Notes: generated by a model not told the origin, from the sequence alone. DNA of 64,000 nt from Promethearchaeota archaeon (GCA_016840085.1 JAEOTA010000085.1:17441-81440); one strand, 5' to 3'. Positions 21,753-58,033 are shown, counted from the first letter of the stretch. Numbers and translations are program-made.

Positions 21753-21951
21753 ATAAATTTCCTCATATTTTTAAAATTATCAATTATGATTTTAAACAAG
21801 CAAAAATATGTTCTCTCTTATATAAAGTTTATAATCCTAATATTAAAGTTAATTTTATCCACCTTAATAGTAGAGAGATTTAAAAATAAAACTATTATAA
21901 TATTTACATAATTATTTTATATTTTGAATGATAAAAATAAATGATTAAGAT

Positions 21952-22203
21952 TTGATATTTATGGAATTTAAAGAATTTTTTAGCGATTTTGCGGTTTTCC
22001 TAAAGACAGGTCTTAAAAAATTAATACTTGTTAGTATCCTCGTTTTCTATTTTTCATTTTTGGGTTTTTATAATGCTTTTAGGATGAATTTAGATTATTC
22101 AGTAGAATTTAGTTGGATATATGGTATAATCTCTAGCCTAATATTCACTATAATTTTCGTTTTACTTGTAGAGATATTCCTCTTTTATCTCAAGAAACGA
22201 TAG
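21952..22203 (+). CDS. Small two-TM membrane protein (probable start ATG 21961), paralog of 29001..29258
   Basis: MEFKEFFSDF...ILVFYFSFLGFYNAFRMNLDYSVEFSW aligns along its whole length with the 29001 ORF. The first 18 nt from the ATG are identical. Confidence 0.55.
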   Translation: MIFMEFKEFFSDFAVFLKTGLKKLILVSILVFYFSFLGFYNAFRMNLDYSVEFSWIYGIISSLIFTIIFVLLVEIFLFYLKKR

Positions 22204-22271
22204 TAAATTTTTATTATCAGTAAACAAAAATGTATTATAATAATAAGTATCTTTATTAGAGGGTGGATTAA

Positions 22272-23495
22272 TTAAGGATTTGACAAATTTTTGAATAGAT
22301 CTAAATACTTTTCTACGTGAGTTATCAAAAGAAATTCATTTTTAACTTTCTCGCGGCCTTTTTCGCCCATTTTTTTAGCAATTTTTGGATTCTTTAAAAG
22401 ATAAATTACTTTTTCAGCAGTCTCATCAATTGTATCAACTAAAAAACCATTAATTCCATTTTCAATTTGTAATTTAATACCTCCAACATTTCCACCGATA
22501 ACGGGAGTTTTTTTCCATAGTGCTTCGGTGACAGTGAGACCAAAACCTTCTCTAATTGATTTTTGGAGAATAATTTCAGAAACTTGTTGGAACGCATTTA
22601 CTTCTAAATCTGCAACTCCATCTAAATTTGATAAGATATGAATGCTTGGATCATCTCCAGCATAATTTTTTACTTTTTCTAACCATTTAACACCTTCCGG
22701 ATCATCATGAGCAAGACTTCCTATTAAAACTAAACGGATAGGAATTTCTTCATTAACTTTTCTATAAACATCAATTACACCCAATGGATCCTTCCAGGGA
22801 TCAAATCGGGAAACTTGTGTAATAAGGGGTAAATCTAATGGAACAAATTTTTCGACAATCTCTTTGGCAATATTTTCATCTAGTTGTTTATTCTTCTCTG
22901 AAAATGGATCAATTGAAGGTGTTATTTGAAATATAGGTGTTGTAATATCTTCTTTGGCAAATTCTCTCTTAGTAAAAATGAGGGCATTATATAAAGGAAG
23001 ATATTCCGAAATCAAATCCCATGCGTGAGGATTTGGATTAGAAGTATCAATATGACACCGCCAAATCCATTTACCTTTCTTCTCTTCAGCAAATTTGATA
23101 ATAGGACATGGTTGAGGATCATGAATTATTATGAAATCACCATCAGGTCGAATTTGTTCATATGACGATTTTGCTTGCAAAATATATGAGGAAATTTCGT
23201 CATCAGAGAATTTGATATCCATATTCCCCTGTAATGCATTATGCATTTTCTTGGATATTTTAAAAAATTTTTCAGGAGCTGTAAAAACTTTCCAATCCAC
23301 GTTAATTTTTAATTCTTGCATTAACGGAATCATATTATGTAAGATTTCAGCAACCCCTCCACCAAATTTAGTAGCGTTTATATGTAAAATATTATAATTC
23401 TCAAACTCTTTTGCTTTTTTTTGGACTCTTTTTATTACTTTATTCCCTAATAATTTAGAATATTGTTTTAATAGATTATCAGATTCAGTATCCAT
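22272..23495 (-). CDS. treT: Trehalose glycosyltransferring synthase (GT4)
   Basis: HINATKFGGGVAEILH, WRCHIDTS, ITQVSRFDPWKD, AHDDPEG and REGFGLTVTEALWK closely follow the Thermococcales TreT sequence as I recall it. Adjacent to a sugar ABC transporter. Confidence 0.8.
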   Translation of the reverse strand: MDTESDNLLKQYSKLLGNKVIKRVQKKAKEFENYNILHINATKFGGGVAEILHNMIPLMQELKINVDWKVFTAPEKFFKISKKMHNALQGNMDIKFSDDEISSYILQAKSSYEQIRPDGDFIIIHDPQPCPIIKFAEEKKGKWIWRCHIDTSNPNPHAWDLISEYLPLYNALIFTKREFAKEDITTPIFQITPSIDPFSEKNKQLDENIAKEIVEKFVPLDLPLITQVSRFDPWKDPLGVIDVYRKVNEEIPIRLVLIGSLAHDDPEGVKWLEKVKNYAGDDPSIHILSNLDGVADLEVNAFQQVSEIILQKSIREGFGLTVTEALWKKTPVIGGNVGGIKLQIENGINGFLVDTIDETAEKVIYLLKNPKIAKKMGEKGREKVKNEFLLITHVEKYLDLFKNLSNP

Positions 23496-23662
23496 TTCTT
23501 TAATTCCACTATCTTTTTTTACAATTACTATAATTACTATAAATCTAGTTGGTTCGAATTCATAACTTATTATTTTTTATTCATTTTACGCATATAAAAT
23601 TGATTTGTTTATTTATCAAAACAGTAACATTTATAAACATTACTATCGTATTTTCTTTTTGA

Positions 23663-23699
23663 TTTTTTCCCTCTTCATTCTCATTAAAAAGGGAAAAAA
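23663..23699 (+). promoter_or_regulatory. 10-bp perfect inverted repeat (TTTTTTCCCT N17 AGGGAAAAAA) upstream of the binding-protein gene
   Basis: Lies 45 nt upstream of ATG 23744 and downstream of a TTTATAAA TATA-like box (about 23630). Confidence 0.3.
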
Positions 23700-23743
23700 T
23701 GAAAATTTAACAAAAATCAAAAAATTTGGGTCGAAATTAAAAA

Positions 23744-25198: not shown

Positions 25199-25220
25199 AA
25201 TTCTAAAATTTAAAAATTAC

Positions 25221-25231: not shown

Positions 25232-25269
25232 ATTTATGTTGCAATAATATTTTTCAAAAGTGAATAAAA

Positions 25270-29000: not shown

Positions 29001-29258
29001 ATGGAATTTAAAGAATTTCTAACCAAATTTATTAGCTATAATAAAAGAATTATAAGAAAGTTAATAGTAATCACTTTTATTGTCTTTTATTTTGCTTTTT
29101 TAATTTTGTACAATCTTTTAAGAATAAATTTACAATATTCCATAGAATCAAGTTGGTCATTAGGATTAATTTATGCGCTAATATCCGCTCTTATTCTAGT
29201 CTTGATTGTAGATTTATTGCGTTTCATCTACATAATTAAATCGGGAAAAGAATTATAA
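29001..29258 (+). CDS. Small two-TM membrane protein, paralog of 21961..22203
   Basis: MEFKEFLTKF...FIVFYFAFLILYNLLRINLQYSIESSW. Same orientation as its paralog. Confidence 0.55.
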   Translation: MEFKEFLTKFISYNKRIIRKLIVITFIVFYFAFLILYNLLRINLQYSIESSWSLGLIYALISALILVLIVDLLRFIYIIKSGKEL

Positions 29259-34019: not shown

Positions 34020-35444
34020 CTAAAAGTTTAATCCCTTAAAGTAATTTACTGTTGTATAAATATCTTTACCACCTTTTCTAAGATAATCCATAGCTTCTTC
34101 GATACCTTCAATTGTTAAGTCAAACATAGGAATTATGCTAGAGATGATCTTTCTAGTCCATGGTGACCATTCAGGTCTTATAAGTTCAGGATTTAACCAT
34201 ACGATTCCATTTTTAAAATGATCCCCGAGCTCCTTGATATAATAGATTCCTGGTAATTCATTTCTATGATAATAATATATCGAACCATATTTTTCAGTTA
34301 ATTCCCAAGACGCCATTGCAGCGTCGCCCACTATGACAACTCTATATTTATTATCATATTTTCTTAGAAAATCGTTGAATTCAATAGCTTCATCAGGATT
34401 GCGTTTTGCATTGAAATAAATTGTTTCATAGATGCAATTATGGAAATAATAATGTTTAAAATCTTTCCAATGAGACATATTATTTGCTGCTGAGAAAAGT
34501 AAATTAACGAGATGGGCATAAGGAGTCATACTACCTCCAACGTCCATTAAAAGGAGGAGTTTTACATCATTTTTTCTACGTTTATCAAATACTATTTCAA
34601 TATCTCCACAGTTTTTAGCAGTTTTATCAATAGTTTCATCTAAATTTAACTCGTCTCTTTTTCCAATTTCTTCAAGCTTCTTGAGTTTTTTCAGAGCAAC
34701 TTTGATTTGTCGTGTATCTAAAACGATATCTTTGCGATAATCTTTAAAAATTCTTTTTTCTGCTATTTGAACTGCTGTCCGCATACCTGAAGAACCACCA
34801 ATTCTCATTCCCATAGGATTTTCTCCAGAATGCCCAAAAGGAGATGTGCCCTGCGTGCCAATCCAATGATCTCCAAAATTATGTTCTTCATCTTGTCTTT
34901 GCATTAAATCTTCGAATTGTTTTTGCATTTCTTCGAGATTAAAAAATTGGTTTAACATTTCTTGGGATATCCCATCAATTTCAGCAATACCAAGGTTTTT
35001 CTGCAACCATTTCAATATTTCCTCCTTAATATCCTCTGGTGCGTTTATTAAAAGCTTACCTTCAAGTTTATCTCTGTATTTCTCTAACAGTTCTTGAAGT
35101 AATTCTTGTATATCTACAACGTTGAGGTATTGTTGATATTCTCTTAATAATAATTGCAATCCTTCAATTAATTCTGGGAAAGTAATATCTTTCTCTAACC
35201 AATCCCAAATCTCGTGTTTAAGATCATCAGGGAATCTTATCATAGCATTTTTAAAGAAATTAGCAAAAGAAATGTCATAGATGTCAAAATGATGTTCATT
35301 TTTGCATAAAATAGATCTTGAAGTATAATAAAACTCGACCATGTTATGGATAAGCCCTTTATTTAACGCCTCTAATAGGGTAATATACTCTGTTATTGAT
35401 ACAGGAAGTCTTTCTTTAAGGTAATAAAAAAATTCGATAAACAT
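34020..35444 (-). CDS. vWA-domain protein (CoxE-like partner of a MoxR ATPase)
   Basis: 474 aa. MIDAS-like LLLLMDVGGSMTPY. A MoxR gene lies upstream on the same strand, separated by an insertion. Confidence 0.7.
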   Translation of the reverse strand: MFIEFFYYLKERLPVSITEYITLLEALNKGLIHNMVEFYYTSRSILCKNEHHFDIYDISFANFFKNAMIRFPDDLKHEIWDWLEKDITFPELIEGLQLLLREYQQYLNVVDIQELLQELLEKYRDKLEGKLLINAPEDIKEEILKWLQKNLGIAEIDGISQEMLNQFFNLEEMQKQFEDLMQRQDEEHNFGDHWIGTQGTSPFGHSGENPMGMRIGGSSGMRTAVQIAEKRIFKDYRKDIVLDTRQIKVALKKLKKLEEIGKRDELNLDETIDKTAKNCGDIEIVFDKRRKNDVKLLLLMDVGGSMTPYAHLVNLLFSAANNMSHWKDFKHYYFHNCIYETIYFNAKRNPDEAIEFNDFLRKYDNKYRVVIVGDAAMASWELTEKYGSIYYYHRNELPGIYYIKELGDHFKNGIVWLNPELIRPEWSPWTRKIISSIIPMFDLTIEGIEEAMDYLRKGGKDIYTTVNYFKGLNF

Positions 35445-35672
35445 TTAATTAAATCTTAATATCTTCAATGGTCGTTATTTAAATAGAGTTAACCATATAA
35501 TATTAGTTTTTGGTCAATATCAATACTTCTTTAATCTTCTTATAAAATAATTTGGTCTTATAGTAATAAACTAAGTATAAGAAAAAATTATTTATAAACT
35601 TGAAAACCCAAAAACTCATTGATATTATCTGGATATTTATTATTTTGAATTATTATTAATGGACGCATCGCT

Positions 35673-36770
35673 ATGAGAAAGATTTCATATCAAAATTGTA
35701 AAGAATTGGCAAAGCTAAGAGGGCTTGAATTAGTAATTTCTGAAAAAGAGTTTAATAAACTAATAAATAGAAAAAAATCAGCTCTAAGCAAAATTAAAAT
35801 TAAATGGAAATGTGACAAGGGACATCAATGGACTGCAACATATAACAATATAAAACAACATGAATCTGGTTGTCCTTATTGTTATGGTAATGTTGCAATA
35901 TCCTATCAGGTCTGTAAGGATTTAGGAAAACTAAAGGGATTTGAGTTAATAACCTCTGTAAATGAATTTAATATATTAATGAAAAATAGAACCAATGTTC
36001 CTAGTAAAGTTAAATTAAGATGGAGTTGTTTTTTAGGACATAAATGGAATGCAGCATATAACAATATAAAGCATACAGATACGGGATGTCCTTATTGTTA
36101 TGGTAATCTACCATTATCATATCAAAATTGCATAGAATTAGCAAAACTGAGAGGATTTGAAATATTAATATCTGAAAAGGAGTTTATAGGTTTAATGAAA
36201 CAGAGAACTACAGTTCCAAGTAAAGTAAAATTAAGATGGAAATGCGAAAAGTGTCATGAATGGTGTGCGATATATAATGATATACAACAAGGTAAGGGAT
36301 GCCCAGAATGTGCTGAAGGTAAATATGAGGAAAGCTGTCGTTGGTATTTTGAAAAAATTTTCAAAGAAAAATTTAATAAAATCAAACTATCCAAATTAAT
36401 ACCTTATTATAATGGTCAGATGCATTTAGATGGATTTGCTTTAGTAATGATTGCTGAAAATCAAATTAAGTTAGCTTTTGAATTTAATGGTATACAACAT
36501 GATGAATTCCCTAATTTCTTTCATAAAACATATCAAGACTTTTTAGAACAACAACGATATGATAATGAAAAGAAAGAATTATGTGAAAATAATGGAATAA
36601 TTCTTATTGTTTTTCCCCAGAAAATTGATTTAAAAATGAATCATCCTGAAATAATTCAAAAATTCATTATAGACGAATTAGAAAGAAAAACTGGTTTTAG
36701 ATTATCAAACATTCAACAATATAATCATCTGGTTGAATGGGCTAGTTGGAGAAGTTTAGATAATTTTTAG
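35673..36770 (+). CDS. Triple zinc-ribbon repeat protein with a C-terminal PD-(D/E)XK-like (Vsr/DUF559-like) nuclease domain
   Basis: Three ~72-aa repeats (...LAKLRGFEL...KLRWKCxxGHxWxAxYNNIKxxxxGCPYCYGN). C-terminus HLDGFALV...KLAFEFNGIQH...YDNEKKELCENNGIILIV. Confidence 0.6.
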   Translation: MRKISYQNCKELAKLRGLELVISEKEFNKLINRKKSALSKIKIKWKCDKGHQWTATYNNIKQHESGCPYCYGNVAISYQVCKDLGKLKGFELITSVNEFNILMKNRTNVPSKVKLRWSCFLGHKWNAAYNNIKHTDTGCPYCYGNLPLSYQNCIELAKLRGFEILISEKEFIGLMKQRTTVPSKVKLRWKCEKCHEWCAIYNDIQQGKGCPECAEGKYEESCRWYFEKIFKEKFNKIKLSKLIPYYNGQMHLDGFALVMIAENQIKLAFEFNGIQHDEFPNFFHKTYQDFLEQQRYDNEKKELCENNGIILIVFPQKIDLKMNHPEIIQKFIIDELERKTGFRLSNIQQYNHLVEWASWRSLDNF

Positions 36771-36781: not shown

Positions 36782-36847
36782 TATCACATATTCTGTAATA
36801 CTAACCAGTAATCTTTCTTTTAAGTAATAATAAAATTCGATAAACAT
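36782..36847 (-). pseudogene. Remnant copy of the vWA gene 5' end, 15 nt downstream of the MoxR stop
   Basis: Reverse translation gives MFIEFYYYLKERLLVSITEYVIE*. The intact gene has MFIEFFYYLKERLPVSITEYITLL (35379..35444). Confidence 0.7.
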
Positions 36848-36862
36848 TCTTAAAAATCAAAA

Positions 36863-37714
36863 TTAGGTAGGGAATTTTATTTTATCAACAACTATTTCAA
36901 AATCTTTCTCTTTCTTTATCAAAACGCCAAGAAATGGAATTCCTTTCTTTAATTCATCTATTGTAATCCCGCTTTTTAGCAAAACTCCAATCCAATCAAG
37001 AAGTTCCGAAGTTGATGGCATTTTTCTTAATTTAGTAATCGCTCTTAAGGCATAAAAATGTTTTAAACATTGTTCTAATAAGTTCTGCTTTAGATTCGGA
37101 TAGTGTAATCTGCAAATTTCTGCCATGAAGCTTTTAGAGGGAAATTCAATCCAGTGGAATACACATCTTCTTAAAAATGCATCTGGGAGTTCTTTTTCAT
37201 TGTTAGATGTAATAATTACAATTGGTCTGTTTTTAGCTTTCACAAATTCTTTTGTTTCTTTTATATAAAATTCCATAACATCCAATTCCTGTAAAAGATC
37301 ATTAGGAAATTCAATATCAGCCTTATCAATTTCATCAATTAATAAAACTACCTGTTCATCAGAAACAAAAGATTCGCCTAATGGGCCCAGCATTATATAA
37401 TCGTGAATATTATCTACATCTCGATCATCACAGCCAAATCTACTATCATTTAATCTTTGAACTGTGTCATACATATAGCACCCATCAATACCCTCACTCG
37501 TGCTTTTAATATTCCAGATAATTAATTTTTTACCTAAACTTTCAGCTATTGCATGCGCGAGCATTGTTTTCCCTGTTCCTGGCTCTCCTTTAACTAATAA
37601 GGGTCTTGCTAATGCTATTGATACGTTAACTATGTTCCTTAGTTGAGGATCAGCAAGATATTTAACCCTATCAGTTTTTACGTCTCCTTGGAATTTATTA
37701 AATGTAGCATCCAT
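36863..37714 (-). CDS. MoxR/CoxD-like AAA+ ATPase (AAA_5)
   Basis: Walker A LVKGEPGTGKTMLAHAIA, Walker B VVLLIDEIDKAD. Confidence 0.85.
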   Translation of the reverse strand: MDATFNKFQGDVKTDRVKYLADPQLRNIVNVSIALARPLLVKGEPGTGKTMLAHAIAESLGKKLIIWNIKSTSEGIDGCYMYDTVQRLNDSRFGCDDRDVDNIHDYIMLGPLGESFVSDEQVVLLIDEIDKADIEFPNDLLQELDVMEFYIKETKEFVKAKNRPIVIITSNNEKELPDAFLRRCVFHWIEFPSKSFMAEICRLHYPNLKQNLLEQCLKHFYALRAITKLRKMPSTSELLDWIGVLLKSGITIDELKKGIPFLGVLIKKEKDFEIVVDKIKFPT

Positions 37715-38341: not shown

Positions 38342-39517
38342 TTAGTCTCTTTGACTTAACACTGTAACAGAACAAACACTAAACGCACCACCAAGATTGT
38401 GGGCTAATCCCGTTTTAGCGTCCGGAACTTGTCTTCCTTCTGCTCGTCCTTGAAGCTGTCTAGTAATCTCTTGGAGCATTCTACAACCAGTTGATCCTAT
38501 AGGATGTCCAAATGATTTTAAACCACCTGATGGATTTACTGCTGTTTCCCCATCCCAATTAAACGTACCATTCTTTAATTCTTCGGCAGCCATTCCACGA
38601 TCACAGAATTGTAAATCCTGACAATTTAATAATTCTGTAATGGTAAAACAATCATGAACCTCAGCAGCATCAATTTCTTTTCGTGGATCAGTTATATCTG
38701 CTTCTTTATACGCCATCTCAGCTGCTTTAACAGTGGCAGGGGCATGAGTAAAATCAAAATTAGGCCAATACCATGGAATGCTTGTATACACGGCAATTGA
38801 GTTTGCTTTTACAACTACATAATCGTCTGCATGAGCATAACTTTCTGCAAGTTCTGGGCTTGTTAAAATAAGTGCTGCTGCACCATCACTCATTGCACAA
38901 CAATCATAGCGACCAAGGGGATCTGCAATCATTGGAGCATTCAATGCTTGTTCAATTGAAATTTTCATTCTGAAATGAGCTTTTGGATGATAATATCCAT
39001 TATCATGATTCTTAACAGCAACTCGCGCTAAATCTTCTTTTGTCCATCCATATTCCTGAAAACTACGGGTAGCAAGTAAACAAAACATTGCAGGAGCTGA
39101 TGGGCGGGGATATACAGGATGACCAAAATATTTTGCGCTAGGAAGTCCTCTACCACCTTCATCCATTAGTTTTTCTACACCACAGGCCATAACAACATCA
39201 TACGCACCGGAAGCAACACCAAAACAAGCATTGCGGAAGGCATCCATACCTGAAGCACAATAATTCTCACATCTAGTAATTGGTTTTCCACCTAATCTTA
39301 ATGTATCTTCTAAAGTGGCGCCAGAAACACCTGTGAAGAAATAATAAACACCTAACCATGCTGCATCAATTTCATCTTTACTTACCCCTGCATCTTTGAA
39401 AGCACCATGGCATGCCTCACTTAAAAGGTCATACTGATTTTTATCCCAGAGTTCCCCATATTTCGTCGCGTCACATCCTATTATCGCAACCTGATCTTTT
39501 ATTCCATGTTTAACCAT
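38342..39517 (-). CDS. Archaeal-type acetyl-CoA acetyltransferase (thiolase), paralog 2
   Basis: YCASGMDAFRNA (active-site Cys), GHPIGSTGCRM, NLGGA. Start taken at ATG 39517 (the track starts at TTG 39526). About 80% aa identity to the neighbouring paralog. Confidence 0.85.
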   Translation of the reverse strand: MVKHGIKDQVAIIGCDATKYGELWDKNQYDLLSEACHGAFKDAGVSKDEIDAAWLGVYYFFTGVSGATLEDTLRLGGKPITRCENYCASGMDAFRNACFGVASGAYDVVMACGVEKLMDEGGRGLPSAKYFGHPVYPRPSAPAMFCLLATRSFQEYGWTKEDLARVAVKNHDNGYYHPKAHFRMKISIEQALNAPMIADPLGRYDCCAMSDGAAALILTSPELAESYAHADDYVVVKANSIAVYTSIPWYWPNFDFTHAPATVKAAEMAYKEADITDPRKEIDAAEVHDCFTITELLNCQDLQFCDRGMAAEELKNGTFNWDGETAVNPSGGLKSFGHPIGSTGCRMLQEITRQLQGRAEGRQVPDAKTGLAHNLGGAFSVCSVTVLSQRD

Positions 39518-39672
39518 AATACACAATCCAATAGTAATTTCTACTAAAATAATTAAGTTTTCTATTAAAAATTAATTGATTATATTAGTAAGAGTTTTTT
39601 AAATTTCCTAATATTTACACACAGTCTTAAAAAAAAGAAAAAGAAAAAAATAAGGATTTTTGTTATAAAATC

Positions 39673-40860
39673 TTAATCTCTTTGACCTAAAATAGTTACA
39701 GAGCACACACTATATGCTCCACCGAGATTGTGGCATAAACCTAATTTAGCGTCTGGAACTTGTCTTCCTTCTGCACGTCCTTGAAGTTGTTTAGTAATTT
39801 CTGTTAACATTCGACAACCTGTAGATCCTATTGGATGACCAAATGATTTCAGACCACCTGATGGATTTGTTGCTGTTTCACTATCCCAATTGAAGGTTCC
39901 ATTCTTTAATTCCTCGGCAGCCATTCCACGATCACAGAATTTCAAATCCTGACAATTAATTAATTCTGTAATTGTAAAACAGTCATGAATCTCAGCACAA
40001 TCAATTTCTTTTCGTGGATCAGTTATATCTGCTTCTTTATACGCCATCTCAGCTGCTTTAACAGTAGCAGGAAAGCTTGTAAAGTCAGCTCCAGGCCCAT
40101 TAGAAGGCACATACCATGGGGTATTAGTTCTGCATGAAAGAGCATTTGCTTTTACTAATATATAATCATCAGCATGAGCATAACTCTCTGCAAGTTCTGG
40201 TGTAGTCAATATTAGAGCTGCAGCGCCATCTGACATGGCACAGCAATCAAATCGTCCAAGAGGATCAGCAATCATAGGTGCATTCATTGCTTGTTCAATT
40301 GATATTTTTCTTCTAAAGTGAGCTTTTGGATGATAAGAACCGTTATCATGATTTTTCACTGCAACTCGAGCCAGATCTTCTTTTGTCCACCCAAATTCAT
40401 GAAAACTGCGGGTAGCAGCCATAGAGAACATTGCAGGAGCGGATGGGAGAGGTAATACAGGATGTCCGAAAATTTTGAATCCTGGAAGTCCACTTGACCC
40501 TTCATCCATTAGTTTTTCTACACCACAGGCCATAACAACATCATACACACCCGAAGCAATAGCAAAACAAGCATTTCGAAAGGCATCCATTCCTGAAGCA
40601 CAATAATTTTCTGTTCTCGTAATTGGTATTCCATCTAATCTTAACATATCCTCAATTGTAGCACCAGACATTCCTGTGAAATAATAATATATCCCCGCCC
40701 ATGCTGCTTCAATCTCATCTTTTTTAATGCCAGCATCTTTGTAAGCATCTCGAGCTGCTTCAAAAAGTAAATCATACTGACTTTTATCCCAGAGTTCTCC
40801 ATATTTTGTCATATCACAACCAATTATAGCAACTCTATCTCTTATCCCTTTAGTTACCAT
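39673..40860 (-). CDS. Archaeal-type acetyl-CoA acetyltransferase (thiolase), paralog 1
   Basis: Same motifs as paralog 2. GGAGGT Shine-Dalgarno 7-8 nt upstream. 16 nt downstream of the HMGCS-DUF35 gene. Confidence 0.85.
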   Translation of the reverse strand: MVTKGIRDRVAIIGCDMTKYGELWDKSQYDLLFEAARDAYKDAGIKKDEIEAAWAGIYYYFTGMSGATIEDMLRLDGIPITRTENYCASGMDAFRNACFAIASGVYDVVMACGVEKLMDEGSSGLPGFKIFGHPVLPLPSAPAMFSMAATRSFHEFGWTKEDLARVAVKNHDNGSYHPKAHFRRKISIEQAMNAPMIADPLGRFDCCAMSDGAAALILTTPELAESYAHADDYILVKANALSCRTNTPWYVPSNGPGADFTSFPATVKAAEMAYKEADITDPRKEIDCAEIHDCFTITELINCQDLKFCDRGMAAEELKNGTFNWDSETATNPSGGLKSFGHPIGSTGCRMLTEITKQLQGRAEGRQVPDAKLGLCHNLGGAYSVCSVTILGQRD

Positions 40861-42566: not shown

Positions 42567-42653
42567 ATGGGAGGATATCTACGAAATCTTTTTCAAATCA
42601 TTATTCTTAATTCACCTATAATTAGAATTTATATAAACAGATGGTTTAAATGA
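42567..42653 (+). CDS. Candidate 28-codon upstream ORF overlapping the lyase start (ATGA)
   Basis: MGGYLRNLFQIIILNSPIIRIYINRWFK*. TGA 42651-42653 overlaps ATG 42650-42652. No Shine-Dalgarno seen, so this is speculative. Confidence 0.25.
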   Translation: MGGYLRNLFQIIILNSPIIRIYINRWFK

Positions 42654-44047
42654 ATGGACCCCCCGAACCTTTTAAAATTAAGATGATTGAACATGTTGGA
42701 ATGCCAGATCAAATAAGAAGAAGTGAAGCAATTAGAGAAGCTGGTTATAATACATTTCTATTAAGATCCGAGGATGTTTACATTGATCTCCTAACCGATT
42801 CTGGTACATCCGCCATGTCAGATTATCAATGGAGTGGTCTTCTTTTAGGTGATGAAGCCTATGCTGGAGCCCGAAATTTTTATAATCTCGAAAAAGCAAT
42901 ACAGGATGTACTTGGTTATAAATATATCGTTCCAACTCACCAGGGTCGTGGTGCTGAGCATCTTATGTATAGTTACCTCGTAAAATCAGGTCAGCTTGTT
43001 CCAAGAAATATGTATTTTACTACTTCAAAACTCCATGTTGAGCTTCCTGGTGGAAAAATGGTTGATGTCATCATTGATGAGGCACATGATCCAGAAAATT
43101 TACATCTATTTAAGGGTAATATAGATTTCAAAAAATTACAAGCATTTATTGATGAATATGGAGTAGAAAAAATCGCTTTTGTGAATGTTGAAATGGACGT
43201 GAATATGGCAGGAGGGCAACCTGTATCTATGCAAAATCTTCGTGATTTACGAGAATTTTGCAACGATTATAATTTGAAAATAATATATGATGCTACAAGA
43301 TCGAGTGAAAATGCATATTTTATTCGAGAACGTGAAAGAGGTTATGAAAATACACCAATTATAGATATTTTGAGAGAAATGATGAGTTATTCTGATGGAT
43401 GTATTTATAGTTCAAAAAAGGACTGTCTAGTAAATATTGGTGGTTTTCTTGCCACAAGTGATAAGGATATTTTTGAACATTGCCGTAATATGGTTGTTGT
43501 TTATGAGGGATTGCATACTTATGGAGGTATGGCGGGTCGAGATATGGAAGCTGTAGCAAGAGGATTAAAAGAAAGCACATCATATGAATATTTAAAGTAT
43601 AGGATAAATCAAGTTCGCTATCTGGGCGATTTATTGATGAAAGCAGGAGTTCCTATCGTAAAACCTACAGGTGGGCACGGTGTATTTATAAATGCATTAA
43701 AATTTTTACCCCATCTTGAAAGAAAACAATGGCCCGCCCAAACCCTTGCTGCAGCCATTTATGAAGACTCGGGCGTCAGAAGTATGGAACGAGGTGCAGT
43801 ATCAAAAGGACGAGATAAAGAAACAGGGGAAAACATCTTTCCAGCATTAGAGCTCGTGAGACTCACAATTCCTCGAAGAGTTTACACAAACACACATATG
43901 GAGTATACAGCGGAGTCAGTAATTCGCCTATATGAAAAGCGAGACTCTATCAGAGGTTTAAAGATGGTATATGAACCAGAATATCTCCGTTTTTTTCAAT
44001 CTCGTTTTGAAGTCCTAGAGTCATCAAAGTCATACTTAGAGACATAA
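42650..44047 (+). CDS. Beta-eliminating lyase family: tryptophanase / tyrosine phenol-lyase
   Basis: 465 aa. PLP-lysine motif YSSKKDCLVNIGGFL, DLLTDSGT, C-terminal LRFFQSRFE. The last ~12 residues (VLESSKSYLET) lie beyond the duplicated segment. Confidence 0.85.
   Translation: MNGPPEPFKIKMIEHVGMPDQIRRSEAIREAGYNTFLLRSEDVYIDLLTDSGTSAMSDYQWSGLLLGDEAYAGARNFYNLEKAIQDVLGYKYIVPTHQGRGAEHLMYSYLVKSGQLVPRNMYFTTSKLHVELPGGKMVDVIIDEAHDPENLHLFKGNIDFKKLQAFIDEYGVEKIAFVNVEMDVNMAGGQPVSMQNLRDLREFCNDYNLKIIYDATRSSENAYFIRERERGYENTPIIDILREMMSYSDGCIYSSKKDCLVNIGGFLATSDKDIFEHCRNMVVVYEGLHTYGGMAGRDMEAVARGLKESTSYEYLKYRINQVRYLGDLLMKAGVPIVKPTGGHGVFINALKFLPHLERKQWPAQTLAAAIYEDSGVRSMERGAVSKGRDKETGENIFPALELVRLTIPRRVYTNTHMEYTAESVIRLYEKRDSIRGLKMVYEPEYLRFFQSRFEVLESSKSYLET
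43845..44011 (+). repeat. Direct repeat copy 1 (3' end of lyase gene)
   Basis: 167 bp aligning without gaps to 45617..45783, by eye about 85% identity, offset 1772 bp. Confidence 0.85.
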
Positions 44048-44383
44048 CAATTGCGACTATCAAACACAAATTTAGTAATTTTCTATATTTTTTCATACAT
44101 TTACTCACTTTTGATTTCTTTAATTTTCGATTATTTTCAAAATGTTTATGATTAAAAAAAAAAAAATCACCTCTAATATTTAACATTTTTCTTAAGAGGG
44201 AAAATTAGATGCAGGAAATTAAGAAAATAAGCAAGAAAATGACTAAGATTTTATAATTTTAAGCTCTTTTAATTTATTGTTTATTGGAAATTTGTCGGGG
44301 TCCTGACTATTAATTTTCCGTGCAATTATCAGTGTAGTGAGAAGTCAAAAAGATACAGGGATATACAACGTGGCTTTGGAATT

Positions 44384-45289
44384 GTGTTAGAGGGTATTGG
44401 AGAGAGACATAGTAATTATAACCAAATCTTATATAATGAATTATATTATGGGGATGTGGGGATTTATTTAGATAATTCAAATTATAATACCATTAAATAT
44501 AATACTTTTTTTAAAAATCGAGTATTTATACAAGAAGAAAATAATTGTATAGGAAATATTATTGAAGACAATTATTACGTAAAAAGAGCTTATTTTAATT
44601 GGTCTATTATAATTATAGCAGTAATAGTCTTAATAATCATATCTGTGTGTATTTTTTTATATTATAAATTAAAGAAGAAGAAAGCCTCTATGAAATCAGA
44701 AACTGAAGATGAAATAGCGGAGTCAGTCACTATCCAAAGTGAAACATTGATTTCTGAAGAAGAGCAGACTCCAAAGATATTTCCACATGAAATTGAACAA
44801 AAAGAGTCTCAAACTTCTATGGTTGAATCCATCTCTGTTGAAGATGATGTACCACCCCTTATAGAGCAACTTCCTGAAATCAGTCCTGTAGATAAATTTA
44901 ACATTTTTTTAAGCTATTCTACTTTAGATTCGCAGTATTTCCAAATAGAAAAGATTGTGGAGCTTCTGGAGCAATATCCCGAAATTGGTAAGATATATTA
45001 TTGGGAAGCGGACAGTAAAGAAAATATCGTTGAATTTATGAATGAGACCTTAAAAAAAATTAATGTATTTATTCTCCTCTGCAGTGAGAATTCACTCAAA
45101 TCTAAAGCTGTGAATGACGAATGGCAAGCAGCGTTTCAGATGCGAAAAGAAGGATTATTAAAAATTATCCCTGTATATGAACAACAAGACCATATACCAA
45201 ATATCTTATGGCATTTACTTAATGTAAAGTATACCAAAGACGACTTTAAAGGCTTTCTTGAGAACTTGCATCGTGAAATTTTGAGATAA
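44384..45289 (+). CDS. Membrane-anchored TIR-domain protein with a short N-terminal beta-helix (PbH1-like) remnant
   Basis: N-terminus GIYLDNSNYNTIKYNTFFKN, TM helix WSIIIIAVIVLIIISVCIFLYY, acidic linker. TIR: FNIFLSYSTLDS...VFILLCSENSLKSKAVNDEWQAAF...IIPVY, with the conserved Glu. Confidence 0.7.
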   Translation: MLEGIGERHSNYNQILYNELYYGDVGIYLDNSNYNTIKYNTFFKNRVFIQEENNCIGNIIEDNYYVKRAYFNWSIIIIAVIVLIIISVCIFLYYKLKKKKASMKSETEDEIAESVTIQSETLISEEEQTPKIFPHEIEQKESQTSMVESISVEDDVPPLIEQLPEISPVDKFNIFLSYSTLDSQYFQIEKIVELLEQYPEIGKIYYWEADSKENIVEFMNETLKKINVFILLCSENSLKSKAVNDEWQAAFQMRKEGLLKIIPVYEQQDHIPNILWHLLNVKYTKDDFKGFLENLHREILR

Positions 45290-45330
45290 TAGAGAGAAAT
45301 ATAAATAACAGATTCAACATACTCTTTCTA

Positions 45331-45340
45331 TTTTTTTTTT
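45331..45340 (+). terminator. Oligo-T tract (T10) downstream of the TIR gene
   Basis: T10 lies 42 nt after the TIR stop. Archaeal RNA polymerase terminates at oligo-T. Confidence 0.4.
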
Positions 45341-45471
45341 AAATATGTACCTATTACTTTAGAGTAATAGAAAGAGCAGTAGTGAGAGCGAAGACAAATA
45401 GACGAAAATGTGTCTTACCTTATGATATTTGAAATATATGAAAAAAAGAAAATAAAGACATAAGAATAATT

Positions 45472-45792
45472 ATGGGAGTAATTGATAATTATCTTAAATC
45501 AAAAGAAAAGAAGAAATACTATTGCTTAAGCTGTTTCCTGTATACCAAGAAAAGATATGTTCTCCATGTTCTTGAAGATGAGACAGGAAAGGTATATAAA
45601 TGTCCAAATTGTCCACCATTAGAGCTCGTTAGACTCACAATTCCTCGAAGGGTCTATACTAACACACATTTGGAATATACGGCGGAATCAGTGATTCGCC
45701 TATATGAAAAACGGGACACTATTAGAGGGTTAAAAATGGTATATGAGCCCCAATATCTACGGTTTTTTCAGGCGCGATTTGAAAAATTATAA
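45472..45792 (+). CDS. Chimeric ORF: novel zinc-ribbon N-terminus fused in frame to the duplicated lyase C-terminus
   Basis: MGVIDNYLKSKEKKKYYCLSCFLYTKKRYVLHVLEDETGKVYKCPNCPP plus LELVRLTIPRRVYTNTHLEYTAESVIRLYEKRDTIRGLKMVYEPQYLRFFQARFEKL*. Confidence 0.5.
   Translation: MGVIDNYLKSKEKKKYYCLSCFLYTKKRYVLHVLEDETGKVYKCPNCPPLELVRLTIPRRVYTNTHLEYTAESVIRLYEKRDTIRGLKMVYEPQYLRFFQARFEKL
45617..45783 (+). repeat. Direct repeat copy 2 (lyase 3' end)
   Basis: See copy 1. It ends in FQARFEKL*, which resembles a canonical lyase C-terminus. Confidence 0.85.
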
Positions 45793-45961
45793 AAAAGATA
45801 ATTTTTAGAATAAATATCAGCCAAAAATAAAAAAGTTAGGGAAAGAGAATGGATGTTCCTGTTTTTTTCTTAGCAATCCATTGCCGCATTTCCTCATAAC
45901 ATTCCACGCAGTACTATGCGCCATCGCGTAGGTTGTACGTCATGTCTTGGTCTGATCTTGC

Positions 45962-46663
45962 TTATTCTCTAACCTTTTCTATGGATAAAATAACTCTTTT
46001 TAATTCCCAATTAGGATCTCTCTTACCAGGAAATTCCAAAATCTCCTTACATTGTAAACCCAAATTTTCTAAAAGTCCATTCCATTCTTGTACTGTTAAA
46101 ACTTTTGAACTTTTTTCACCTTTATATTTCCTTCTGATTATTTTTTGAAAAATAAATCCGATAATTTTTCCTATTTTTGTGCGCCATTTATCTGGGGCAC
46201 ATATATCTGCTATTACTAATCTTCCATTATTTTTTATGACTCTTTTAAACTCATTTAATGCTTTTTCAACCTTCATATGACGGATAGCAAAAGAGCTTAT
46301 TATCAAATCAAATGAACTATCACTAAAAGGAATATTTTCTCCATTTCCCTTTTCTGTAATAATAAAGTTTTCAAAACCTTGCTCTTTTATATTTTTTTTA
46401 GCAATCGCAATCATTTCATCCACGGGTTCAAGAGCAATTATCTTAAAGTTATTAGATATCTTTTTTGCAAGAGCTAAAGAAGTGAGTCCTGTTCCTGCTC
46501 CTACATCTAATATTCTAATATCGGGTTTTAATTCACATAATTTTATAAAAGATTTCATAAAATCTTCATAATTAATACCTGATCTCTCAAACATCCTTAA
46601 CTTATCATCCTCATAAGAAAGAGCCCATTTTTTATATTGTTCTTCAATTTTTTTTTCTTTCAT
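45962..46663 (-). CDS. Class I SAM-dependent methyltransferase
   Basis: Motif I ILDVGAGTGLTSLAL and post-I/II regions (FDLIISSFAIRHM, NGRLVIAD). Confidence 0.8.
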   Translation of the reverse strand: MKEKKIEEQYKKWALSYEDDKLRMFERSGINYEDFMKSFIKLCELKPDIRILDVGAGTGLTSLALAKKISNNFKIIALEPVDEMIAIAKKNIKEQGFENFIITEKGNGENIPFSDSSFDLIISSFAIRHMKVEKALNEFKRVIKNNGRLVIADICAPDKWRTKIGKIIGFIFQKIIRRKYKGEKSSKVLTVQEWNGLLENLGLQCKEILEFPGKRDPNWELKRVILSIEKVRE

Positions 46664-47030: not shown

Positions 47031-47594
47031 TTATAAAAAATCTTCAATGACTTTTCGATTTTCCACTTCTTCCTTAAGCTCTTGAAGCCATTTCAATTCT
47101 GCTTCCCAATGAGCATAGTGATGTTTAATAATATAAATTGCAAAAAAGGGGATTTTTCTCTTTAATGTATCTATAAGACCTTTATGTTCCTTATTTTTTT
47201 TTTGAATATACTGAATTCGTTTATCAATGGCTTCAATAATTTCACTCTTAGATAAAATGGGCATGAATAATAACCCTACATCAAGAGGATATCGTATTGG
47301 CTGGATTTCGAAAAAATTTTTTCGAATCATTACAATTAATTCTGTTTTTCCCTTCTCTGTTATATGATATAATGTTCTTTCTGGACGTTCACTATCTTTT
47401 TCCTTTCTACTACTTAATAAACCTTCTTTTTCCATTTTTTCTAAATTGTAGTAGAGAGATCCATAAGAGATTTCCGTAAATTCGCCAATAGCCCATTGAT
47501 TTATCACTTTTTTAATCTCATATCCATGAATGGGTTTAGGAAATTCAAATAAAATCCCTAATAAAATCAATTTTGTAAGATTTTGAATTGCCAT
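47031..47594 (-). CDS. PadR-family transcriptional regulator
   Basis: Winged helix PIHGYEIKKVI...SYGSLYYNLEKMEKEGLL plus a C-terminal helical domain. Confidence 0.85.
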   Translation of the reverse strand: MAIQNLTKLILLGILFEFPKPIHGYEIKKVINQWAIGEFTEISYGSLYYNLEKMEKEGLLSSRKEKDSERPERTLYHITEKGKTELIVMIRKNFFEIQPIRYPLDVGLLFMPILSKSEIIEAIDKRIQYIQKKNKEHKGLIDTLKRKIPFFAIYIIKHHYAHWEAELKWLQELKEEVENRKVIEDFL

Positions 47595-55189: not shown

Positions 55190-55223
55190 GATATTTCAAA
55201 TAATAAAAAATTGTTTAAAAATT

Positions 55224-56201
55224 CTATTTTAATTCAATCAGAATCTTGATAAAATCTCTTTCACCAGGCTTTAAAAATGATTCAAAAGTTTCTTGAACAT
55301 CCTTTAAAGGTATAACTTTGGAGATAAATTTTGCTGCATCAATTTTGTTTTGACCAAATAGTTCAATTGTAGAAAGGATGTCATTACGATCATGTCCTAG
55401 GCACCCTTTTAAGCAAATTTCTTTATTAATGATTTGAAATGTAGGAATAGACATACCTTTTTGAATTCCTTCCAATAATAATGTTCCACCTCTTTGAATT
55501 AAATCAATTGCCATCCTTAAAGTGTCTTCACTTCCTACACAATCAAAAACAATAGAAGGTTGCCCATGTGTCTTTACAAATTTCTTTATTTTAGCTTTAC
55601 TTGGGGGAAAAGCATCAATCGCACCAAATTCCTTTGCTTTTTTCCTTAAAAATTCATGAGGTTCTATCACAATTACATATTCAGGACTTTTTTCACTTAA
55701 CAAAGTGACTAGAAAAGCTAATCCAATATTTCCTCCTCCAATGACCATGATCCTCTGGTTATTTTCTATCTTTGACATTCTTATAGCTCTTATTATATTA
55801 GCAAATGATTCAATCATAACAGCTTCTTTTATAGAAATCGATTTGGGGGGATAAAATATATTACTCCTTCGCACTTTCACATACTCTGCAAATCCACCAT
55901 TTTCAAATATTCCTAATCCTTTTAATTCTCCCATAACATATTGCGAAACATTCATAGCAATTACTTTATCACCAACATTAACATCTTTAATATTCTCACC
56001 TATTTCTACTATCTCTCCAGAAATCTCATGCCCCATTACTAAGGGAACTTGATACATCTTATATTTAAAATTGGTAACATCGCTTCCACATATTCCACAG
56101 AAATGTACTCTAACCAGAACATCGTCCGGACCAGGAACTGGTTTAGGATAATCTTCCTTATACACTATTTTTTGAATATCTTCAAAAACCGCTGCTTTCA
56201 C
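55224..56201 (-). CDS. Zinc-dependent medium-chain alcohol/polyol dehydrogenase
   Basis: CGICGSD, GHEISGEIVEIG, Rossmann VIGGGNIGL. Confidence 0.85.
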   Translation of the reverse strand: MKAAVFEDIQKIVYKEDYPKPVPGPDDVLVRVHFCGICGSDVTNFKYKMYQVPLVMGHEISGEIVEIGENIKDVNVGDKVIAMNVSQYVMGELKGLGIFENGGFAEYVKVRRSNIFYPPKSISIKEAVMIESFANIIRAIRMSKIENNQRIMVIGGGNIGLAFLVTLLSEKSPEYVIVIEPHEFLRKKAKEFGAIDAFPPSKAKIKKFVKTHGQPSIVFDCVGSEDTLRMAIDLIQRGGTLLLEGIQKGMSIPTFQIINKEICLKGCLGHDRNDILSTIELFGQNKIDAAKFISKVIPLKDVQETFESFLKPGERDFIKILIELK

Positions 56202-56351
56202 AATATTTTGAACTTTTAAATTTGATTTCTATTAAACCAAAAAAATCAATTAATAATTTCTCATAAAAATATATAATACTTATTTTATAGTGATTTATAT
56301 AAAATTAGATTTATGATGAATATTAGAAAAAGAAAATTTATTTAGAGCATT

Positions 56352-56594
56352 ATGAAGCCTCCTATATATTGCATATGTGATGAAAAATTAAAAGATATGA
56401 ATGACGGTGGTTTGATAGATTTTAAGAAACGGCTTTCTGATATTGAATGGGAAAAACATATGGAAAAAATTAAAGGTGTTGGACATCCTCCATATGCGGA
56501 ATGGTTCTGTAAAAAACATTATGATAAAGCAAGTGAATTAAAACACTTACCTATTGACAAAGCTTTAAAAATTTTAATGTCTGAAGGAACTTAA
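56352..56594 (+). CDS. Small Cys/His-containing hypothetical protein
   Basis: 80 aa. YCIC...WFCKKHY motif similar to the 2910..3140 ORF. The last 7 codons lie inside the mvhD-remnant repeat. Confidence 0.4.
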   Translation: MKPPIYCICDEKLKDMNDGGLIDFKKRLSDIEWEKHMEKIKGVGHPPYAEWFCKKHYDKASELKHLPIDKALKILMSEGT

Positions 56595-56669
56595 TTCTTT
56601 AATTTGGTTAGTAAACTCTGTAATTATCTCAGCAAATCTCTTCCCTTCAGATCCGCTAATTCATTCTAA
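56574..56669 (-). pseudogene. Remnant copy of the mvhD 3' end with an in-frame TGA
   Basis: Reverse translation gives [30 protein letters not shown]. Intact mvhD has [31 protein letters not shown]. 95-bp direct repeat with 57588..57682, offset 1013 bp. Confidence 0.75.
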
Positions 56670-56730
56670 TTATATTTACTTAATTAATATAAATTTAGTA
56701 ATATCCAGTATCTCCATCACTATTATAATT

Positions 56731-57256
56731 TTAAATCCTTAGCTTTTTCCAATAAAATGGTATAGTACTTTTTTTCCATCCATAAACCCATCTCAATCAT
56801 TTTATCAAGTAATTCATGGAATTCTTTATAATTTTTCAAGATTCTTTTTTCAAGAGCTTCTAAGAGAATTTCAGTGCTCCATTTCGTATTGATACTTTTT
56901 GATTCAGCAATTAACCTGGCTCTCTTATCGTTTACAAGTAATAAGTCAGCATTTAGCTCTAAACATAGAGCTATGGCATATGCCTCTCCGCGCCCTAATT
57001 ATTTTGTAAGATTTAAAGCAATTTCATGAGATTTATCTGATTCCGGGTCTTTAACGATAAGCCATCCTTCTTCTTTAGCATTTAATTCATATTTTATATC
57101 TTGTGGGATTTCCTCATCTAGTTTAGAAAATGGATGTATTAATTCTTCCCAAACAGCATTATGAATGAATACTGTCGAATATAATTCTTTTAATAGAAAT
57201 AATTTCTCAATTTTAGCAAAAAATATTAAAGGAGAGGTATCAGAAATAACTATCAT
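56731..57256 (-). pseudogene. DUF3368-type PIN-domain toxin interrupted by an in-frame TAA (56999-57001)
   Basis: MIVISDTSPLIFFAKIEKLFLLKELY...HEIALNLTK*LGRGEAYAIALCLELNADLLLVNDKRARLIAESKSINTKWSTEILLEA..., all in one frame. Confidence 0.7.
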
Positions 57257-57267
57257 ATAAATCAGTT

Positions 57268-57504
57268 TTATATATGAACAGGTATTCTGGCTTTTGTACG
57301 AATCAATTCTAACTCTCGATATGAAATTCGTGCTATTTCAGAAGCTTTACCAAATGATATATCTCCTCGCATATATAATTCTAAAGCATCTTGAATAGCC
57401 TCTGGAAGTGATCTTATATATTCCCAATCTATAGGTTTAATTAAATCCTTTTGATTGAACCAATATTGACTTAAATCACTGTTCTGTACCATATTATATC
57501 TCAT
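57268..57504 (-). CDS. UPF0175-family antitoxin
   Basis: ALELYMRGDISFGKASEIARISYRELELIRTKARIP. Sits 11 nt upstream of the PIN gene. Confidence 0.7.
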   Translation of the reverse strand: MRYNMVQNSDLSQYWFNQKDLIKPIDWEYIRSLPEAIQDALELYMRGDISFGKASEIARISYRELELIRTKARIPVHI

Positions 57505-57562
57505 TGATTCTTATTCAATAATTTAAAGGAAATATTCATATAAAATTTTATTGGCTTAAATA

Positions 57563-58033
57563 TTAACTGTTATCTTCTATACTCTTATAATGTCTGAAGG
57601 GACCTAATTCTTTAATTTGGTTAGTAAATTCTGTGATTACTTCAGCAAATCTCTTTCCTTCAGATGCACTGACCCATTCTAAACGCACCCTTTTTGGATC
57701 TACTCCTAATTGTTTAATCAGAATATTATGTAATCTCTCGAATCGTTCCTGTGTATATTCATTTCCAGTAATATAATGACAATCTCCAATATGACATCCA
57801 CTTACTAGAACTCCATCAGCGCCATTTTTTAAAGCTTTTAGGACAAATGATGGATCTACTCTTCCAGAGCACATTACCCTAATGATTCGAATATTCGGAG
57901 GGTATTGAAACCGTGAGACTCCTGCTAAATCTGCTCCTGCATAACTGCACCAGTTACAACAAAAAACTAAAATATGAGGTTCGAATTCTTCTTTTTTTAC
58001 TTTTTTTCTTGATCGTGACATTTTCTTATTCAC
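57563..58033 (-). CDS. mvhD: Methyl-viologen-reducing hydrogenase delta subunit
   Basis: [37 protein letters not shown]. Overlaps the hdrA stop by 8 nt. Confidence 0.85.

Follow-up and report, generated by a model that had tools for sequence, protein, structure and literature searches.

Displaced gene ends beside inserted genes in a Lokiarchaeial contig, most likely recombination scars of a known class rather than a new mobile element

We analysed a stretch of 64,000 nucleotides (nt) (GCA_016840085.1, JAEOTA010000085.1:17441-81440; hereafter the window), with a G+C content of about 30%, from a metagenome-assembled genome (MAG) contig of a Lokiarchaeon (Lokiarchaeia, an Asgard archaeon). An earlier note, made from the sequence alone, had listed four loci in which accessory genes (the cargo) lie between two copies of a neighbouring gene or gene end: the 3′ end of a beta-eliminating lyase gene (locus i), the 3′ end of mvhD (locus ii), the 5′ end of a vWA gene (locus iii) and a whole small membrane gene (locus iv). 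It had proposed an undescribed small-cassette mobility mode. Our results indicate that loci i-iii are most likely scars of a known class of recombination, common in Lokiarchaeia, and not a new mobile element. Loci i and ii are true insertions since relatives have the corresponding empty sites. In both, one copy (copy B) together with its downstream flank is the ancestral junction, and the other (copy A) is joined to the gene body and reads into the cargo. The insert of locus i brought its own diverged, functional lyase end. We consider it probable that loci i-iii are all scars of a homology-anchored insertion of foreign DNA (gene-end displacement) in which no dedicated mobile cassette is involved.

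Duplicated gene ends in the window

For comparison, 172 loci were fetched (labelled L001-L172), and a self-scan covered 1.79 Mb of Lokiarchaeial DNA. The lyase has hundreds of homologues at 83-93% identity, of which the named ones are labelled Promethearchaeota or Lokiarchaeota, a few carrying other Asgard names; a search with the MoxR-like ATPase encoded next to vWA returned 80 loci, from Lokiarchaeial MAGs. Genes checked with Pfam were those for the lyase (Beta_elim_lyase), the transmembrane (TM)-TIR protein, MvhD (FlpD), UPF0175, vWA (VWA_CoxE), the MoxR-like ATPase (AAA), DUF4379 (three matches), TreT and the substrate-binding protein (SBP), permease and ATPase of an ABC transporter.

All four repeat pairs exist, with boundaries either as first reported or a few bases further out. 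Pair i (43840-44011 and 45612-45783) extends over 172 nt with 85% identity, and pair ii (57585-57682 and 56572-56669) over 98 nt with 87% identity. Pair iii (35385-35460 and 36788-36863) covers 76 nt with 74% identity, namely 22 codons from the vWA start and 16 nt upstream. Pair iv (21961-22203 and 29001-29258) consists of whole small membrane genes, 48% identical over 75 amino acids (aa) (tblastn E-value 6e-20). On DNA score alone, pair iii is no better than chance AT-rich pairs of the window. It was validated because the reading frame is kept (18/22 aa identical) and because the same stub follows MoxR in L004 and L036.

The lyase locus

The features of locus i are the following.

42650..44047, plus strand: intact beta-eliminating lyase gene (tyrosine phenol-lyase/tryptophanase type), 465 aa, identified by Pfam
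43840..44011, plus strand: copy A, in the working lyase: its final 57 conserved codons, similar to copy B as far as ...RFE
44012..45611, plus strand: cargo of 1600 nt, with the lyase tail, an AT-rich spacer, a 5′-truncated beta-helix/TM/TIR gene and 47 zinc-ribbon codons
45612..45792, plus strand: copy B, the displaced lyase 3′ end, 59 codons with the canonical ...RFEKL*, at the ancestral flank; covered by contig L172
45839..45961, minus strand: 3′ remnant, 41 codons with one in-frame stop, of the convergent 128-aa gene found 3′ of the lyase in L003

The empty sites that the earlier note suggested looking for are present in relatives, both here and at mvhD (L166-L168, see below). In L001, L003 and L010, the lyase has 456 aa, ends with RFEK[LI]* and meets its neighbours directly, and in L010, L014, L017 and L041 it lies at 17-23 nt from the gene of a convergent GNAT acetyltransferase. 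In the window, a tail of 11 aa (VLESSKSYLET) replaces the canonical K[LI]* end of the working lyase. This tail was found in none of the 119 other lyase homologues among the matches listed, all of which end with RFE followed by 2-7 residues.

Copies A and B differ at 26 positions over 57 codons, 21 of them synonymous and 5 non-synonymous (5/57 aa differ), with a synonymous divergence (dS) of 0.90, a non-synonymous divergence (dN) of 0.039 and an omega of 0.04. The probability of such a synonymous excess under neutrality is 1e-9. As judged by comparison with 18 outgroup lyases, 13 derived states are located on B and 11 on A. This synonymous excess and the split of derived states between the copies show two alleles that each evolved in a working gene, and not the decay of one copy. 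Moreover, copy B still forms an open frame of 59 codons with family-consensus residues, so that it became a remnant recently relative to the A/B split. The proposal that the inserted DNA carried its own version of the target gene end is thus well supported at this locus.

The anchor gene is itself a mosaic. Compared with L003 (10001-11362), the lyase sequence 42650-44011 has a dS of 0.17 over nt 1-420, 0.52 over nt 421-840 and 1.58 over nt 841-1191, and is saturated in the last 171 nt, which shows frequent recombination inside this gene. The 3′ end of the L003 lyase is aberrant, with a proportion of synonymous differences (pS) of 0.96 to L001, so that a donor tract is not assignable. Copy A is 77% and copy B 79% identical to the L003 end; A is nearer to L001 and B to L003, both at only 77-83%. 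Assignment of the resident copy via relatives was tried and abandoned, given this aberrant L003 end and an amino-acid comparison with 120 homologues that did not discriminate between the copies.

We then consider the junctions on the two sides of the cargo (J1 and J2). An open reading frame (ORF) of 106 aa (45472-45792) was found to be chimeric: residues 1-47 are the N-terminus of a zinc-ribbon protein and residues 48-106 the lyase C-terminus, fused in frame at lyase codon 398. Its zinc-ribbon relatives P0295 (64% identical) and P0296 (68%) are proteins of 75-85 aa with a CxxC...CxxC pattern, and the window copy is cut after the second CxxC. J2 is therefore an illegitimate joint through a pre-existing zinc-ribbon gene. 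The TM-TIR gene, named as cargo by the earlier note, is indeed present (44384-45289, with a GTG start) but it is 5′-truncated: it lacks about 175 N-terminal residues of its homologues (P0124, P0164 and P0169; 407-477 aa, composed of beta-helix, TM and TIR) and of the NosD/beta-helix ectodomain just the final ~66 residues are left. The stub at 45839-45961 is a second illegitimate breakpoint. Taken together, the island at locus i is a patchwork of arbitrary breakpoints. An arbitrary illegitimate junction, as expected from homology-facilitated illegitimate recombination (HFIR), is found at J2, and other truncated genes lie in the same island.

The 128-aa neighbour in L003 is a zinc-ribbon gene, and its stub in the window abuts the stop codon of a class I methyltransferase gene (45962-46663). 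Further downstream, the gene at 47031-47594 encodes a PadR regulator, which corrects its earlier assignment.

The mvhD locus

Locus ii, on the minus strand, includes the following features.

57563..58033, minus strand: intact mvhD (FlpD), identified by Pfam
57585..57682, minus strand: copy A, the 3′ end of the working mvhD
56670..57584, minus strand: cargo of 915 nt, with a UPF0175 antitoxin gene (57268-57504) and a DUF3368/PDC-S70 PIN toxin gene (56723-57256); covered by contig L171
56572..56669, minus strand: copy B, the displaced and decaying mvhD 3′ end (TGG to TGA), overlapping a convergent 80-aa ORF (56352-56594)

In L166-L168, an mvhD gene of 144 aa overlaps the 3′ end of the convergent 80-aa ORF, as copy B does in the window. 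Copies A and B both align to one and the same segment of L166 (6340-6437), downstream of which the L166 DNA continues into the window sequence found after B. The working gene ends with a tail of 8 aa (YKSIEDNS) created by a TAA to TAT change at the ancestral stop; none of 120 mvhD homologues carries it. Both genes of the UPF0175/PIN pair were recognized correctly by the earlier note. However, the PIN toxin gene (DUF3368, PDC-S70 according to PADLOC) has an in-frame TAA at 56999-57001 (...ALNLTK*LGRGEAY...). The antitoxin frame is intact, whereas the toxin has probably lost its activity.

Divergence between the mvhD copies (dS 0.44, dN 0.073, P = 0.012) supports two alleles only weakly since most changes are specific to the remnant. 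Indeed, 10 of the 13 differences are unique to copy B, including the TGG to TGA change, and the working copy keeps the outgroup state. Copy B is for the most part a remnant in decay, which can be explained without a foreign allele. The general claim that each insert came with its own target end therefore stands for locus i; it is not needed at locus ii, locus iii may carry a stub left by a paralog, and locus iv is a pair of paralogs.

These observations raise the alternative of an origin in situ, by a local duplication of the gene end that accompanied the insertion and gave two initially identical copies, or by tandem duplication, after which copy A would be overwritten by allelic homologous recombination or the remnant would decay, no foreign end being involved. 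The pattern of changes in mvhD is as expected from this alternative. The mosaic lyase shows that allele replacement occurs, tandem vWA paralogs are known in relatives, and one locus (L120 1725-4461) provides a contrast case, a plain tandem duplication of a gene junction without cargo (gene1, N-terminal stub of gene2, C-terminal stub of gene1 with 96% aa identity, gene2). The lyase, in contrast, is difficult to explain in this way. Its copy B has an intact frame of 59 codons with few derived amino acids at most, yet a dS of 0.90 to copy A, which would need a recent duplication and an immediate replacement of A. In addition, the empty-site L003 is at a dS of only 0.17 from the window in the 5′ part of the lyase, which implies that the insertion is young compared with the A/B divergence. 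No relative with tandem lyase genes was found, and the cargos are not copies of the flanking DNA, so that plain tandem duplication, named beforehand as an outcome that would refute insertion, does not account for the loci. The in-situ origin fits mvhD and not the lyase, and we consider it unlikely as an explanation of the whole.

Beside locus ii, an enoyl-CoA hydratase gene is located between the 80-aa ORF (or the mvhD side) and an alcohol dehydrogenase (ADH) gene in L166 (6658-7752) and L001 (20672-21371), where the window has 150 nt (56202-56351). This gene appears to have been deleted or rearranged in the window.

Support of the junctions by independent assemblies

The window being part of a MAG contig, it could be that a metagenome assembler had strung strain variants of a gene end in series. 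We looked for the junctions in independent assemblies by protein look-ups of the TIR protein, the 80-aa ORF and the methyltransferase. Three sequencing runs yielded Logan contigs that match the window at 100% identity over J1 and J2 of locus i and over both junctions of locus ii: L084 (43382-45513) spans J1, L172 (45489-47996) spans J2, and L171 (55025-57632) spans the two junctions of locus ii. Exact-protein look-ups of the lyase, P0001, the zinc-ribbon/copy B ORF and UPF0175 matched no record.

L084 and L172 both come from run SRR14699983 and overlap by only 25 nt (45489-45513), where the Logan unitigs break; L085 (run SRR14699982) begins inside copy A and ends at 45513 too. These points would be in line with an artefact. 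The position 45489-45513 is a graph branch at the start of the zinc-ribbon ORF, due to a strain variant or an A-rich low-complexity k-mer, and the join of L084 and L172 is credible because the zinc-ribbon ORF that reads through the overlap matches its family on both sides. Furthermore, MAGs produced in other studies and with other assemblers (L004, L022, L035 and L036) show the same layout, and a chimera made at a shared k-mer would yield a hybrid gene and not a duplication. An assembly artefact is thus extremely improbable.

Recurrence at the lyase and at other genes

The lyase and acetyltransferase genes were found together in 16 genomes; their junction is empty in 4 of these and carries 0.6-3.8 kb of inserted DNA in the other 12. 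Lyase 3′ remnants are located beyond the insert in four other MAGs. They all reach the stop codon, with differing lengths and cargos.

L022 (Loki_b32), 906-1241 and 1441-1527: remnant of 112 codons and a nested one of 29 codons, with the lyase at 3398-4774; cargo, a class I/II aminotransferase
L035: remnant of 25-27 codons; cargo, a 162-aa membrane ORF
L032: remnant of 27-35 codons; cargo, a 511-aa membrane protein
L036: remnant of about 17 codons, a weak match; cargo, a TPR protein and a 273-aa protein

The nested remnants in L022 look like serial displacement at one gene. As for the left edges, the remnants start at lyase codons ~347 (L022), 398 (window), 422-432 (L032/L035) and 438 (L036). 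There is therefore no fixed boundary, of the kind given by an att site, among these independent lyase insertions.

The self-scan revealed about ten further terminal remnants at unrelated genes, in L015, L027 and L041 (vWA 3′ ends) and in L028, L034, L058 and L061. They are mostly 3′ ends, on the same strand as the intact gene, downstream of it and ending at the same stop, with dS from 0.2 to >1 and dN of 0.02-0.2. This amounts to roughly one scar per 100-150 kb of the sampled loci, a density that is not unbiased since the loci were themselves picked around the same hotspots. Variable boundaries, variable cargo and many target genes point to a general recombination process rather than to site-specific elements.

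Two of the displaced vWA 3′ remnants are located at 13138-13395 in L027 (81% aa identity) and at 19680-19874 in L041 (71% aa identity), each with a stop.

The vWA locus

Locus iii differs in that the displaced piece is a 5′ end.

36863..37714, minus strand: MoxR-like AAA ATPase gene, the conserved upstream partner of vWA
36782..36863, minus strand: vWA 5′ remnant, the first 22-24 codons, directly after MoxR
35673..36770, plus strand: cargo, a DUF4379 treble-clef zinc-finger protein gene with three internal repeats of 216 nt
34020..35444, minus strand: intact vWA gene (CoxE-like), 474 aa, of the ..SITEYITLL.. allele group common to L004, L036 and L041

The same order with the same breakpoint, that is MoxR, a 24-codon vWA stub, DUF4379 on the opposite strand and a 474-aa vWA, is found in the window, in L004 and in L036. 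MoxR is 98% identical to that of the window in L004 and 87% in L036, which is another species. The L036 DUF4379 and vWA proteins are 78% and 81% identical to those of the window, in line with the flanks. The shared breakpoint and these L036 identities indicate that locus iii is old and inherited, or was transferred as a block.

Over 22 codons, the stub and the working start differ with a dS of about 1.6 and a dN of 0.18 (P = 0.008), including a TCA/AGT serine switch. Codon usage places the stub with the common ..SITEYMTL.. type, and the working gene in the distinct ..SITEYITLL.. group. Two vWA paralogs, of 412 and 472-474 aa, lie in tandem after MoxR in L063, L069, L038 and L045, and the 474-aa type is never the immediate neighbour of MoxR. 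Either an imported DUF4379-vWA block displaced the resident gene start, which survives as the stub, or the stub is what remains of a first paralog that was lost. Assigning it to the first or the second vWA gene of the tandem-paralog genomes was tried, but the N-terminus is too conserved to tell. In other genomes, MoxR and vWA are separated by 0.3-8 kb of inserted DNA and no stub is present. An isolated vWA 5′ stub was also observed in L033 (17821-17910), at 7 kb from MoxR.

The cargo of this locus had been called a nuclease gene. Pfam identifies a DUF4379 zinc-finger protein and the nuclease label is without support. Its three tandem repeats of 216 nt (35685-36290) are 69-74% identical. The ortholog in L004 (5065-5943) is shorter by ~72 aa, with one repeat fewer, and is ~76% identical at the aa level, where the flanking genes are at 96-98%; this gene would thus be fast-evolving or exchanged.

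The membrane gene pair and other paralogs

21961..22203, plus strand: memA, small membrane gene with two TM segments, 80 aa
22272..28932, both strands: treT (minus) and, on the plus strand, the ABC transporter SBP, fused permease and ATPase genes and a 159-aa membrane ORF; identified by Pfam
29001..29258, plus strand: memB, paralog of memA, 85 aa, 48% aa identical

Locus iv had been listed with the same architecture as the others. It is instead a pair of old, diverged and complete paralogs, not a gene-end scar, and nothing observed connects it with loci i-iii. In L004, the closest relative, memB is absent and the ABC transporter between is a 75-80% allele; no homologue of memA or memB was found in any of the fetched loci.

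Ordinary tandem and segmental paralogy is common in the window. Tandem thiolase paralogs (38342-39526 and 39673-40860) are 82-83% identical in nt, and two hdrA-like paralogs (58026-61136 and about 62580-64000) 71-81%.

Search for mobile-element features

Consistent with the earlier statement that no cargo encodes an integrase or transposase, Pfam detected none of these families in any cargo ORF nor in more than 50 ORFs tested in the 64-kb window, and the comparable cargos examined in other genomes gave no such match either. No terminal inverted repeat was found at the cargo ends beyond AT-rich chance matches, nor any shared end motif or repeat common to the cargos, and the known transposon ends that were sought in them as a possible refutation are absent. 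Among the 172 fetched loci, no cargo occurs at a second site; only vertical DUF4379 copies and distant TIR genes were detected.

The loci do not correspond to transposons, insertion sequences (IS) or miniature inverted-repeat transposable elements (MITE), since the repeats are diverged and 76-172 nt long and there is no transposase. They do not correspond to integron cassettes either: there is no integrase and no Rfam match, and the cargos are located at three unlinked genes. The window also contains no tRNA gene.

We further considered non-autonomous elements with an attP site carrying the 3′ end of the target gene. The tyrosine or serine recombinase that integrates them would be encoded outside the element, as with tRNA islands, tycheposon satellites and cis-mobilizable elements (CIMEs), and serial insertions would push older ones outward. 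The topology is that of attL and attR where the element supplies the gene end, the tails of the working copies look element-like, two of the cargos are conflict-type genes, and the nested remnants of L022 resemble serial tycheposon integrations separated by partial tRNAs (10.1101/2020.12.28.424599). The longest identical runs, 20 nt at locus i and about 25 nt at locus ii, are located within the repeats and could represent a core, but are also expected by chance at 85-87% identity. Nevertheless, no recombinase is encoded in these cargos, in the other cargos examined or in the window, and the lyase remnants have the differing left edges given above. Many different genes are targeted, the cargo ends cut through genes and are not conserved, they share neither a motif nor an inverted repeat, and no cargo recurs at a second site. 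Site-specific integration of this kind appears decidedly unlikely.

A model for gene-end displacement

We return to the insertion of foreign DNA anchored by homology, which we favour for loci i-iii. Donor Lokiarchaeial DNA would arrive with a conserved gene end (lyase, mvhD or vWA) and the donor's adjacent genes, and homologous recombination within the conserved gene would anchor the incoming piece. The far side would then be closed by an illegitimate joint in the resident gene, upstream of its end (HFIR), or, with a circular piece, the single crossover alone would be sufficient (Campbell type). By either route, the incoming end would become the working end, and the resident end would be stranded beyond the cargo, where it would decay. 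HFIR was reportedly described by de Vries and Wackernagel in 2002 and by Prudhomme et al. in 2002. Within this model, the route taken (HFIR or circle), the identity of the foreign copy and, at locus iii, an origin by insertion rather than by loss of a tandem paralog are inferences.

Several observations weigh against this model. No genome was found that could be the donor, with TIR after the lyase or the toxin-antitoxin (TA) pair after mvhD, and the cargo is therefore only presumed to be foreign. A simple HFIR event predicts a canonical stop on the working copy, and both A copies have unique tails (0/120 homologues each), which call for an additional step, or for a circle whose homology has a defined edge. 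Neither lyase end is close to the end of the nearest relative and the direction of transfer is therefore not assignable. The remnant-specific changes in mvhD mean that locus ii, taken alone, fits duplication and decay in situ, and the tandem vWA paralogs of L063, L069, L038 and L045 mean that the stub at locus iii may be a product of paralog loss. Finally, the recombinase search spans 64 kb, and an integrase acting in trans may be encoded elsewhere in the genome. To our knowledge, no DNA-uptake route has been described for Lokiarchaeia.

In a related possibility, the accessory gene between two copies of a gene end would be a recombinase-free mobile unit, which leaves by homologous recombination between the copies, as a circle of the cargo and one gene end, and could enter any related genome at the same gene by a single crossover. 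We regard this as improbable. If true, conserved gene ends would act as the att sites of a general, host-encoded flow of accessory and defence genes in Asgard archaea.

Relation to known systems

A first close counterpart of loci i and ii is the C-terminal displacement of rhs genes (Jackson et al. 2009, PMC2935791). The route proposed there is a circle made by homologous recombination, with a core fragment, the tip and the intervening genes, whose return by a single crossover moves the old end downstream. As for rhs and for the orphan C-terminal (CT)-immunity modules of Rhs and contact-dependent inhibition (CDI) loci, an intact gene is followed by same-strand fragments composed of a conserved stretch and their own end; the fragments vary in length, at times form strings (L022), and need no recombinase. 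This layout was observed at loci i and ii, in the L022 pair and in L015, L027, L028, L034, L041 and L061. Unlike rhs, the ends are here orthologous and encode near-identical protein without a variable toxin tip or immunity logic, and the genes are metabolic or housekeeping genes (lyase, mvhD, vWA) of an Asgard host. Moreover, the DNA of the copies differs by 13-26%, unlike the core fragments of one rhs locus, which are identical to each other.

HFIR is the second counterpart. There too, an anchor in a conserved gene at one end is combined with an illegitimate joint at the other, foreign genes are gained while some of the resident locus persists downstream, and genes are truncated at arbitrary junctions. 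Type VI secretion system (T6SS) effector-immunity arrays of Vibrio cholerae have been attributed to this process (Kirchberger et al. 2017, PMC5361080), for which experimental demonstrations are limited to transformable bacteria and to Escherichia coli conjugation (PMC3240628). The non-canonical tails of the working copies are, in contrast, not predicted by the simplest HFIR event.

The third counterpart is given by integrase islands at tRNA genes or gene 3′ ends, as tycheposons and Asgard elements (PMC8813620, PMC11529989). There too, the target is kept intact by an element-borne end with a distal partial copy, serial insertions push older ones outward, and defence cargo is frequent. The present loci differ from them by the lack of an integrase, of a fixed att boundary and of conserved ends, by diverse protein-coding targets and by cargos of 0.9-1.6 kb with truncated genes. 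These papers on Asgard mobile genetic elements (MGEs) describe integrase elements at tRNA or att sites and not the gene-end scar.

Accordingly, we do not retain the proposal of an undescribed small-cassette mobility mode: the cargos are found at no other site in the fetched loci, junctions cut genes, remnant lengths vary (17-112 codons), and recombinase-free models already exist (PMC2935791, PMC5361080). As far as the literature searched shows, this is the first documentation of such a scar in Asgard archaea and at housekeeping genes. The mechanism class being known from bacteria, the results widen its host and gene range without adding a new principle.

Significance for Lokiarchaeia

Gene gain in Asgard archaea is of wide interest, and little is known of it beyond a few integrase elements and viruses. 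With these scars, recombination between Lokiarchaeial lineages that leaves illegitimate ends has a concrete signature, which can be counted. They mark conserved convergent gene junctions as insertion hotspots, with the lyase/acetyltransferase junction filled in 12/16 genomes, and they indicate that defence-type genes (TIR, PIN toxin-antitoxin) arrive by this route. The displaced ends are fossil alleles, which can be used to date and polarise transfers.

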